This document shows, piece after piece, positions 7,087-7,261 of a DNA stretch of 12,489 nucleotides. Each line of letters starts with the position of its first letter. The first letter of the stretch is position 1. The stretch comes from a virus, in the UHGV virus genome UHGV-0192751. The stretch is one strand, 5' to 3'. A model generated the notes under the pieces. The model saw only the letters and a program-made list of their open reading frames with translations, did not search any database and was not told the origin of the DNA. The translations under genes and the position numbers were made by a program.

Positions 7087-7120
7087 CTTTCTGCACCTTG
7101 AGGATAGCAAGGGAGAATAT

Positions 7121-7258
7121 GTGATTAATTTTAGCAAACTGATACGGGAGTTGCGAGTCATGGGCGAAAAACTACCCAACTGGAAATTCTTCCTCATCTG
7201 GGCCGTGTTCTTTTTATTCGGTCTGTCAAGCGTTATTAGCGCTATACGCTGGTGGTGA
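7121..7258 (+). CDS. Small hydrophobic peptide (single predicted transmembrane helix); not in the ORF track
   Basis: GGGAG at 7111-7115 is 5 nt before GTG 7121; an in-frame ATG at 7160 with GGGAG 9 nt upstream is an alternative start. Product is (VINFSKLIRELRV)MGEKLPNWKFFLIWAVFFLFGLSSVISAIRWW, stopping at TGA 7256-7258. AT-rich, between a terminator and the next tail gene. Confidence 0.4.
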   Translation: MINFSKLIRELRVMGEKLPNWKFFLIWAVFFLFGLSSVISAIRWW

Positions 7259-7261
7259 TTT

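Follow-up and report, generated by a model that had tools for sequence, protein, structure and literature searches.

A conserved mobile cassette encoding a predicted small membrane peptide in the late operons of temperate phages

What occupies the gap between the tail spike and baseplate wedge genes of the virus genome UHGV-0192751, and does it contain a gene? The stretch of this genome that was analyzed (12,489 nucleotides (nt), in the following referred to as the window) belongs to a SEN34-like (Brunovirus-type) temperate myovirus prophage of Enterobacteriaceae and spans its tail and baseplate module. The two genes are separated by 228 nt, and an initial annotation made from the sequence alone had placed a gene for a small hydrophobic peptide at positions 7087-7261. 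The gap holds one plus-strand open reading frame (ORF; 7121-7258), which is almost certainly a real conserved gene located on a mobile cassette. This small-membrane-peptide cassette is widespread and mostly overlooked, its control region is highly constrained, and the peptide family has already been catalogued as hypothetical. Tentatively, and with somewhat less than even confidence, the cassette can be read as a silenced, type-I-toxin-like unit that would be expressed by transcriptional read-through and would assist lysis of the host cell.

The ORF starts with GTG, codes for a peptide of 45 amino acids (aa; MINFSKLIRELRVMGEKLPNWKFFLIWAVFFLFGLSSVISAIRWW), and terminates with a TGA codon (7256-7258) that abuts the wedge gene. 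The ORF was thus present within the interval proposed initially, whereas the first part of that interval (7087-7120) proved to be its leader. A Shine-Dalgarno motif, AGGGAG, is located at 7110-7115, 5 nt upstream of the GTG, in agreement with the good ribosome-binding site (RBS) that had been claimed. A possible internal start on the same strand (7146-7162) consists of GGGAG (7146-7150), a distance of 9 nt, and the in-frame ATG codon 14 (7160-7162), from which a 32-aa form would be translated. By itself a short ORF in a 228-nt gap means little, but its conservation points to more than chance. Approximately 100 copies, drawn from annotated phages, species-representative genomes, and IMG/VR, yielded 37 distinct peptides, all of them 44-48 aa long, and the frame was open in those examined. 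Conservation with a bias toward synonymous substitutions had been named beforehand as a check and was found: in codons 23-45, which encode the hydrophobic helix, the proportion of synonymous differences (pS) was 0.73 (saturated) and that of nonsynonymous differences (pN) 0.25, with a ratio of nonsynonymous to synonymous substitution rates (dN/dS) of 0.11 among 44 unique 45-codon sequences, although the underlying pairwise Nei-Gojobori estimates of dS ignore phylogeny and recombination, which has to be counted against this value. The alternative is a chance ORF in a noncoding spacer in which only RNA or DNA elements are functional. The shortness of the ORF, its omission by PGAP in the closest Escherichia coli relatives, and conservation that is partly at the nucleotide level would suit this explanation, but it is already refuted by the frame kept open in ~100 copies, the narrow range of lengths, and the saturation of third positions with retention of the membrane-helix amino acids, so that its probability is practically nil. 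The opposite strand also speaks against it, because the minus-strand ORF 7197-7084 (37 aa, ending just before the hairpin described below) was rejected as a real gene owing to a nonconserved start and in-frame stop codons in some homologs.

The peptide matches PHROG 6632, a family of unknown function, over its full length (E = 3.3e-21; residues 1-45 against positions 1-45 of the 45-position profile). A profile search of 1.84 billion representative proteins retrieved 36 relatives, all of them short, and no larger homolog with a known domain; as judged from these comparisons, the family is narrow and without a larger homolog of known function. Searches of Pfam, NCBIfam (E up to 10), PADLOC, and PDB sequences with the peptide gave no match, and the PADLOC anti-phage defense models matched neither the window peptide nor its lambdoid counterpart. 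The description of the gene as unannotated holds for E. coli prophages of 97-98% identity, in which PGAP/RefSeq omits the ORF, but not for the phages SEN34 (SEN34_23) and Rac-SA53 (rac58), where it is annotated as hypothetical, nor for PHROG 6632. It is present in many GenBank records, with S. Typhimurium 14028s among the strains for which the peptide is recorded, and the only names found for the peptide in databases are “hypothetical” and “putative bacteriophage protein.”

AlphaFold modeled the peptide (mean pLDDT 81) as a helix from residue 4 to 17, a kink at Leu18-Pro19, and a second helix from residue 20 to 44. The N-terminal helix (residues 4-17) is amphipathic, and one membrane helix with a hydrophobic core at residues 23-42 is predicted (Kyte-Doolittle peak of 2.34 at residues 24-42), as the initial annotation had proposed for a one-helix membrane peptide. 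Gly or Ser occupies positions 36 and 40 in almost every member, which creates a small-xxx-small motif, and the C-terminus, RWW, follows directly after the helix. Since basic residues cluster at the N-terminal end, the positive-inside rule makes an N-in topology likely, with only Arg-Trp-Trp at the periplasmic face. The product is therefore modeled as a tail-anchored peptide of the inner membrane, its predicted location, with a cytoplasmic amphipathic helix of ~20 residues and a single transmembrane helix.

The mobility of the gene is apparent from a comparison with E. coli prophages that have the same spike and wedge genes and an empty site (loci L100 and L101). In these prophages the spike stop codon overlaps the wedge start codon (TAATG, a junction present in strain CUPF09), and both the window and SEN34 carry a clean 226-nt insertion exactly at this junction point. 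The whole inserted cassette extends from the spike stop to the wedge start (7034-7261, plus strand; 226-228 nt in the alignment with the empty-site prophages). With a G + C content of 45%, compared to 57% in the spike gene and 54% in the wedge gene, the gap is AT-rich, and it follows a terminator-like hairpin (7054-7085), both as initially described. The unit has a conserved order of a covarying GC hairpin, a spacer, an RBS, a non-ATG start codon, and the ORF. Homology across contexts begins at the A-tract and hairpin, ~10 nt ahead of the hairpin and only ~70 nt before the start codon, and it ends at the stop codon.

Cassette copies were found in several unrelated slots, which goes beyond the initial annotation, as do the hypothetical annotations elsewhere and the complete lack of ATG as a start codon. 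More than half of the copies are located between the signal-arrest-release (SAR) endolysin gene R and the spanin gene Rz of lambdoid phages, including H-19B, many Shiga toxin (Stx) phages of the Stx1 and Stx2 types, and SPN3UB and FSL SP-016-type Salmonella phages. The position 3' of a GH19 endolysin gene in Citrobacter is counted with this endolysin-spanin group. As seen from the N-termini of R and S, the R-Rz lysis cassettes are S21-type pinholin cassettes, whose pinholin/SAR endolysin/spanin organization has been described (PMC8136144, PMC9239132). Other copies lie 3' of the baseplate gene bppV in Rac-SA53, at the lambda-type gpI-gpJ junction in Pseudomonas reactans and one IMG/VR contig, 3' of a tail fiber gene in Sodalis, 3' of the gene for a 965-aa LPD38 protein in Brenneria, and in the tail region of Pseudomonas phage YMC11/02/R656, within a cluster of accessory genes. 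Of 5426 complete E. coli genomes, 923 contain the lambdoid form, which reaches 6 copies in a single genome and often lacks an annotation. Near-identical peptides occur in different slots, as in Rac-SA53 (after bppV) and H-19B (R-Rz), and these sequence similarities argue for recent movement between slots. The unit was located among late genes in every context examined, both in annotated records and in classified loci, and the flanking late genes were co-oriented with the ORF in all 8 annotated records inspected. Both SEN34 and the lambdoid hosts possess a Q-type antiterminator and a single long late operon.

The slots also harbor other small elements. The endolysin-spanin gap of lambdoid phages holds further small one-helix membrane peptides, among them the 48-aa ECs_5707 in Sakai Sp5 (locus L103, 10383-10529), and in vB_EcoS-569R3 (L008, 690-1175) three or four peptides are arranged in tandem: a PHROG 6632-family member, an ECs_5707-like peptide, one of 38 aa, and a short ORF that ends in ...AIAVLVWAIRWW, its IRWW C-terminus being common to it and the PHROG 6632-type family. 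This slot looks like one in which small membrane peptides accumulate. Sakai Sp5 was considered as a source of Hfq cross-linking (CRAC) data and rejected, as it lacks the cassette and has the different small membrane peptide there. In YMC11/02/R656, another small hydrophobic ORF (38 aa; MNAKDAGIVGKRLANAALILATGVAIASIIAAIGVVLG; L007, 3174-3290) is found 26 nt 3' of the cassette copy, within a cluster of small ORFs on both strands of the tail module. The stretch from R to the hairpin in Stx2 and SPN3UB phages (L004, 2856-2990; L005, 2812-2990) comprises ~130-190 nt of noncoding DNA that is absent from the window and shows conservation from E. coli Stx phages to Salmonella SPN3UB (...AGAATATTT..CT.AAAAATGC...CGGGCGGATAACAC.AAATC...); it may represent a promoter or regulator site or an RNA. 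In Rac-SA53, ~0.9 kb downstream of the cassette copy and near an antirepressor gene, a match to the small RNA (sRNA) family sRNA-Xcc1 (RF02221; L003, 3604-3687, minus strand) scored 78 bits, above the gathering score.

The control region of the cassette begins with the intrinsic-terminator-like hairpin (7050-7090 including its flanks), whose stem is formed by GCCCCG and CGGGGC (7054-7059 and 7075-7080) and an inner GTG/CAC stem. Of 49 unique upstream regions, 48 contain it, at a distance of ~35 nt 5' of the start codon. Its outer variable pair covaries (AU in 13, GC in 6, and CG in 2 cases) and the inner stem shows compensatory changes, while the loops are unrelated. Because it has A-rich and T-rich tracts on either side (A-tract 7050-7053, T-run 7081-7085), the hairpin is predicted from its sequence to act as a terminator in both directions, and the A-rich tract 5' of it (ATAAAGCGAAA) is conserved across contexts. 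A simple terminator scan had missed it, as the loop exceeds the limit of the scan, but it folds strongly. Between the hairpin and the start codon, a small stem-loop is predicted on the plus strand (7089-7117), in which UUCU and CCUUG pair with CAAGG and AGAA around the loop AGGAUAG. In most copies that were folded, the purine-rich RBS likewise pairs with a pyrimidine tract 3' of the hairpin, leaving a 7-nt loop, and the inner stems differ by lineage (CCUUG/CAAGG, GACU/AGUC, CAUG/CAUG, and GGCAG/CUGCC). Occlusion of the RBS by this leader stem is weakly predicted, and folding energies no better than those of shuffled sequence (mean z of -0.45) count against it. The start codon is GTG or TTG in 96 of 98 copies and mutated in the other two (GCG, GTA); ATG was found in 0 of 98.

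Unusual constraint extends from this region into the coding sequence. The pS is only 0.04 in codons 2-6 and 0.30 in codons 7-14, compared to 0.73 in codons 23-45. Invariant codons are Asp3 GAT, Phe4 TTT, Ser5 AGC, Lys6 AAA, Glu10 GAG, Arg12 (the rare CGA), and Met14, which is ATG in 43 of 43 unique 45-aa coding sequences as well as in two Pseudomonas copies. The codons of Leu7, Ile8, and Val13 vary freely, and Arg9 is encoded by CGG or AGG but never by CGY. Even the two GC-rich Pseudomonas copies retain GAT-(T/A)TT-AGC and CGA. On the minus strand, the frozen codons coincide with a predicted antisense promoter (7128-7156) that consists of the -35-like hexamer TCGCAA (7151-7156), a 17-nt spacer, TG at 7136-7135, and the -10 hexamer TAAAAT (7128-7133). 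The pattern TCG(C/A/T)A(A/T/C)-17-TGcTAA(A/T)AT was found in 33 of 33 unique sequences, those from Pseudomonas included, with TCGAAT, TCGCAC, and TCGTAC as variants of the -35-like element and TAATAT as a variant of the -10 element. The frozen synonymous sites at the third bases of codons 3, 4, 5, and 12 fall on key positions of this motif: the third base of codon 4 corresponds to the critical A at -11, that of codon 5 to the G of the extended -10 TG, and that of codon 12 to the first T of the -35 element. A conserved mRNA structure over the first codons was discarded as the cause of the freezing, since RNAalifold recovered only the terminator hairpin on either strand.

Transcription from this motif would yield an antisense RNA of ~75 nt (7046-7122, minus strand). 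It would be able to base-pair with the 5' leader, the Shine-Dalgarno sequence, and the start codon, and would have its end at the hairpin with the U-tract. The predicted RNA folds into two stem-loops (-28.8 kcal/mol, z of -4.1). A search of the opposite strand for such an RNA had been proposed with the initial annotation, and an invariant extended -10 motif combined with a bidirectional terminator provides a candidate. Because it is deduced from a promoter-like motif and a terminator, the antisense RNA is put forward as a specific prediction, for which the balance of the sequence evidence is slightly favorable. The proposed promoter rests on conservation and not on consensus strength, since a consensus sigma-70 scan of both strands from 6800 to 7500 detected no promoter; on the plus strand of this region, no promoter-like site was found that could serve the gene itself.

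The cassette of ~226 bp inserts at gene junctions within phage late operons and, if its elements work as predicted, combines four features that would lower expression, as they do in other systems: an upstream terminator, an occluded RBS, a weak start codon, and the predicted antisense RNA. The constitutive antisense promoter would be embedded in codons 3-12, and its RNA would start opposite the GTG, cross the RBS and leader, and stop at the hairpin. Stray transcription in a lysogen would be terminated at the hairpin, and the antisense RNA would silence whatever leaks through; upon induction, Q-antiterminated late transcription would pass the hairpin and titrate the antisense RNA. Late in infection a small amount of membrane-active peptide, possibly in two forms (from the GTG and from ATG 14), would then be produced, and lysis would be assisted or timed by this peptide through perturbation or priming of the inner membrane. 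This would be the logic of a toxin-antitoxin system of type I that lacks a sense promoter of its own, whose “on” signal is borrowed from the host phage. Four expression-lowering features, no detectable sense promoter, and residence in Q-dependent late operons make a peptide that is harmful if mistimed or in excess the simplest reading.

The functional suggestions made initially (a type I toxin-like peptide or a modulator of lysis or exclusion) are unproven, and the link to lysis would be one of context, as most relatives lie between endolysin and spanin genes. Exclusion fits poorly because no sense promoter was found and a terminator lies upstream. A role of the peptide in assisting or timing lysis is itself doubtful, but it is favored by the location of more than half of the copies in the SAR endolysin-spanin interval of pinholin-type cassettes, by the possible dual start, which recalls holin/antiholin pairs, and by the promotion of lysis by hokW-sokW of Sp5 (PMC8621323). 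Several observations weigh against the reading of the cassette as an antisense-silenced, lysis-assisting unit. The copies in the window and in SEN34 are far from lysis genes, and SEN34 has its own holin, endolysin, and spanin, so that a lysis role is not required by the context there. Type I toxins that are known are transcribed from a promoter of their own; for this gene, none was detected. The antisense -35 element matches the consensus at only 3 of 6 positions, and the bare motif TGNTAWWAT occurs 5 times in the window against 1.4 expected on both strands. The frozen GAG10 and (C/A)GG9 codons are better explained as an RBS for ATG 14 than as part of a promoter, and a need for AU-rich codons after a weak start could be a partial cause of the remaining freezing. 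Rfam gave no match at the gathering score for the window and 8 related loci, and no publication on the PHROG 6632 gene or its predicted RNA was found, the literature on Stx-phage lysis cassettes, type I toxin-antitoxin systems, and ribosome profiling of small proteins included. The TGNTAWWAT matches are all on the minus strand, antisense to the late operon (2316-2324, 3051-3059, 3169-3177, 7128-7136, and 11783-11791). Known RNA families were dismissed, as the sub-threshold Rfam matches (rimP leader and others) represent generic matches to terminators. Likewise, the AgvB/AsxR and PasA/C/D sRNAs were rejected as the upstream RNA element because they do not sit in the cassette slot but between the holin gene and the accessory-gene insertion site after the late promoter (or an esterase gene).

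Among the rival explanations, the one closest to the data is a real peptide gene without any antisense RNA, whose 5' codons are frozen by translation signals only, namely an AU-rich region after the weak GTG and an internal RBS for Met14, as in holin/antiholin pairs; the hairpin would then be a terminator or insulator, or an mRNA-stabilizing or processing structure that travels with the gene. Glu10 GAG and Arg9 (C/A)GG indeed provide GGGAG 9 nt before the invariant ATG 14, which is retained even in the two copies without GTG and is the start reported by several gene callers, all of which suggests from the sequences a second, 32-aa product. The T-run on the plus strand is no worse than its minus-strand counterpart, and the empty promoter scan and the frequency with which the -10 motif arises by chance are also compatible with this explanation. 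AU-richness, however, does not account for AGC at Ser5, where AGT and TCT would be more AU-rich, nor for the rare CGA at Arg12; both codons are kept in Pseudomonas and fall on the TG and on the first base of the -35 element. The exact 17-nt spacing in all 33 sequences is equally unexplained, and the A-rich tract ATAAAGCGAAA, common to the contexts, is what the tail of an antisense terminator would need. A cassette without antisense RNA is thus considered unlikely, if by no means negligible.

The two other rivals accept the gene but assign it a different benefit. The cassette could be a “moron” for lysogenic conversion or superinfection exclusion, whose peptide binds a host inner-membrane protein (a transporter, a sensor, or a DNA-entry route) and thereby protects or modifies the lysogen, like other small membrane proteins encoded in tail regions. 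An AT-rich insert with presence/absence polymorphism inside tail modules, the use of tail-tip and baseplate slots in several phage types, the occupation of the same slots by other small membrane peptides, and a conserved small-xxx-small motif suited to helix-helix binding are in line with such a function, but a sense promoter was not found in or near the unit and the upstream terminator would block expression in the lysogen. Where checked, the unit is moreover embedded in late operons and co-oriented with them, its weak start and occluded RBS argue for minimal rather than steady expression, and PADLOC gave no match, all of which makes this function improbable. Even lower is the probability of a selfish cassette for type I toxin-antitoxin addiction or abortive infection that would secure its own or the prophage's retention and have no role in the lytic cycle. 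It would explain a small hydrophobic peptide with a predicted cis-antisense RNA, a mobile cassette with up to 6 copies per E. coli genome, and the tandem arrangement of small membrane peptides in the same slot. Addiction requires a constitutive toxin mRNA, however, and here no sense promoter was found and a terminator lies upstream; the location among late genes in all contexts examined, with more than half of the copies in lysis cassettes, and the lack of Pfam similarity to known type I toxin families also argue against it.

Should the preferred reading of a silenced, lysis-assisting cassette be correct in its most far-reaching form, the unit would be a promoter-less, portable type-I-toxin-like module with Q-antiterminated transcription as its only switch and a dual-start peptide that tunes the triggering of lysis, for example at the step of pinholin or SAR-endolysin release. 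That it constitutes such an undescribed class is rather unlikely, but if so, lambdoid siphoviruses, myoviruses, and Pseudomonas phages would be exchanging it as a plug-in device for the timing of lysis. The cassette is found in the lysis gene cluster of Stx-converting and Salmonella prophages, and in the former toxin release depends on phage lysis. A peptide that affects the timing of lysis or membrane integrity would hence be an overlooked component of lysis in Stx phages and Gifsy-type prophages and a new example of RNA-controlled membrane toxins in phages. The locus would also be a compact case of overlapping codes, in which a gene of 45 codons carries a predicted promoter in its synonymous positions, and would exemplify accessory genes that depend on antitermination instead of a promoter of their own. 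If the peptide is inert in lysis, an annotation correction for a widespread small gene is still gained.

The cassette is surrounded by tail and baseplate genes. The gene order in the window is tail assembly chaperone, tape measure protein with an SLT domain, Dit-like protein, plug, and hub, followed by spike, wedge, baseplate J, DUF2612 protein, tail fiber, fiber assembly protein, and DNA invertase. The 5' neighbor of the cassette, the spike gene (6293-7033, plus strand), encodes 246 aa with a Pfam spike-family N-terminal domain and a GpV apex motif, and the 3' neighbor (7262-7615, plus strand) encodes a baseplate wedge subunit or sheath initiator of 117 aa (phrog_120, baseplate wedge subunit), which PGAP names “contractile injection system sheath initiator” in relatives. 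An AT-richer block (45.5% G + C) between hub and spike (5087-6292) contains three small ORFs of 136, 118, and 100 aa (PHROGs 3443, 4293, and 3556/6324, without assigned function) and closes with a strong terminator at 6256-6275 (AACCCGC...GCGGGTT followed by T8), so that the spike gene is bracketed by two terminators. Related prophages carry other genes at this position, such as a DUF4236 gene on the opposite strand, and the block is a second variable accessory slot. Further downstream, an 18-nt inverted repeat with 89% complementarity (10896-10913 and 12013-12030) flanks the tail-fiber assembly gene and an opposite-strand ORF of 117 aa, and a gene for a Hin/Gin-type DNA invertase adjoins it; the ORFs in this region are located at 10925-11353 (plus), 11449-11802 (minus), and 11987-12406 (plus). 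It is probably an invertible host-range segment like the Mu G or P1 C segments.

Among characterized systems, hok/sok offers an obvious comparison. HokW of the hokW-sokW system of the Stx2 prophage Sp5 is reported to become more abundant when the prophage is induced and to aid both lysis and the release of phage (PMC8621323). The peptide described here resembles it as a predicted inner-membrane peptide of ~50 aa or less in lambdoid prophages, with a short cis-antisense RNA predicted over the initiation region. In contrast to hok/sok, its sequence is dissimilar and matches no Pfam toxin family, a sense promoter and a mok-like leader ORF are absent, and a terminator lies upstream of the gene; moreover, Hok peptides have an N-terminal membrane helix and a polar tail, whereas the peptide here has a hydrophilic N-terminus and a C-terminal membrane helix. 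In size and hydrophobicity (45 aa with a helix at 23-42) it falls within the range of type I toxins (less than ~60 aa and membrane-targeted), but it lacks their promoter, none being detected on the plus strand between 6800 and 7500, and Pfam and NCBIfam (E up to 10) revealed no match to the known families (Hok, Ldr, TisB, Ibs, ShoB, Fst, and others).

For the antisense arrangement, PasB of prophage PP6 in enteropathogenic E. coli E2348/69 is the nearest parallel. PasB is a validated RNA of 83 nt encoded opposite the tail operon and has been described as a trans-acting, Hfq-dependent sRNA (PMC8550237; bioRxiv 10.64898/2026.05.13.724894). It maps to the minus strand of NC_011601 (1466261-1466343; together with its flank, locus L102, 1762-1872) in the gpI-gpJ gap and ends at a bidirectional hairpin directly behind gpI. 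An unannotated plus-strand ORF of 22 codons (MKINVKELFLLLGQKNTNAAKL) is overlapped by it at the 5' end of the ORF. The antisense geometry, the hairpin after a tail gene, and the tiny plus-strand ORF agree with the cassette, copies of which also use the gpI-gpJ slot; however, the sequence is unrelated and the 22-aa ORF product is not hydrophobic, so PasB was rejected as the same element. By analogy, it shows that prophage tail operons do employ a geometry of the cassette type.

Dual-start holin/antiholin genes (lambda S107/S105; S21 71/68) likewise encode small membrane proteins of lysis cassettes, have two nearby starts, depend critically on amount and timing, and carry glycine-zipper-like motifs in their membrane helices, which resemble the motif of the peptide. 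The two candidate starts of the cassette gene, GTG codon 1 and the invariant ATG codon 14, each have a Shine-Dalgarno sequence. Unlike in holin/antiholin pairs, these starts are 13 codons apart and the product has one membrane helix and no charged C-terminal tail. The host phages already possess a holin (of the S21 type in the R-Rz relatives), and the window gene is located in the tail module; proximity to an endolysin gene was seen only in the R-Rz relatives, and no holin family was matched in Pfam or NCBIfam. From phage Mu, too, a comparable protein is known, the gp25 “releasin” (DUF2730), which is tethered to the membrane, has a cytoplasmic portion and hardly any periplasmic one, and is encoded beside SAR endolysin and spanins. 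It acts on SAR-endolysin release instead of hole formation, has 99 aa with an N-terminal membrane helix and an acidic cytoplasmic domain of 73 aa, and belongs to a family restricted to transposable phages (PMC9239132). The peptide differs from it by its 45 aa, its C-terminal membrane helix, and the lack of a Pfam DUF2730 match, and by the defining features of these groups it is neither a holin nor a Mu-type releasin.

The term “moron” (PMC4104026, citing Juhala et al. 2000) stands for an additional gene that has been inserted between conserved genes of a phage. The cassette gene is such an extra, AT-richer gene between genes that are adjacent in related phages. Classical morons have a promoter upstream and a terminator downstream and are therefore expressed from the repressed prophage. 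In the cassette, by contrast, the terminator is upstream, a sense promoter was not found, and the only promoter-like element points the opposite way. A moron by its position, the gene is, as judged from its full-length profile match, a member of PHROG 6632.

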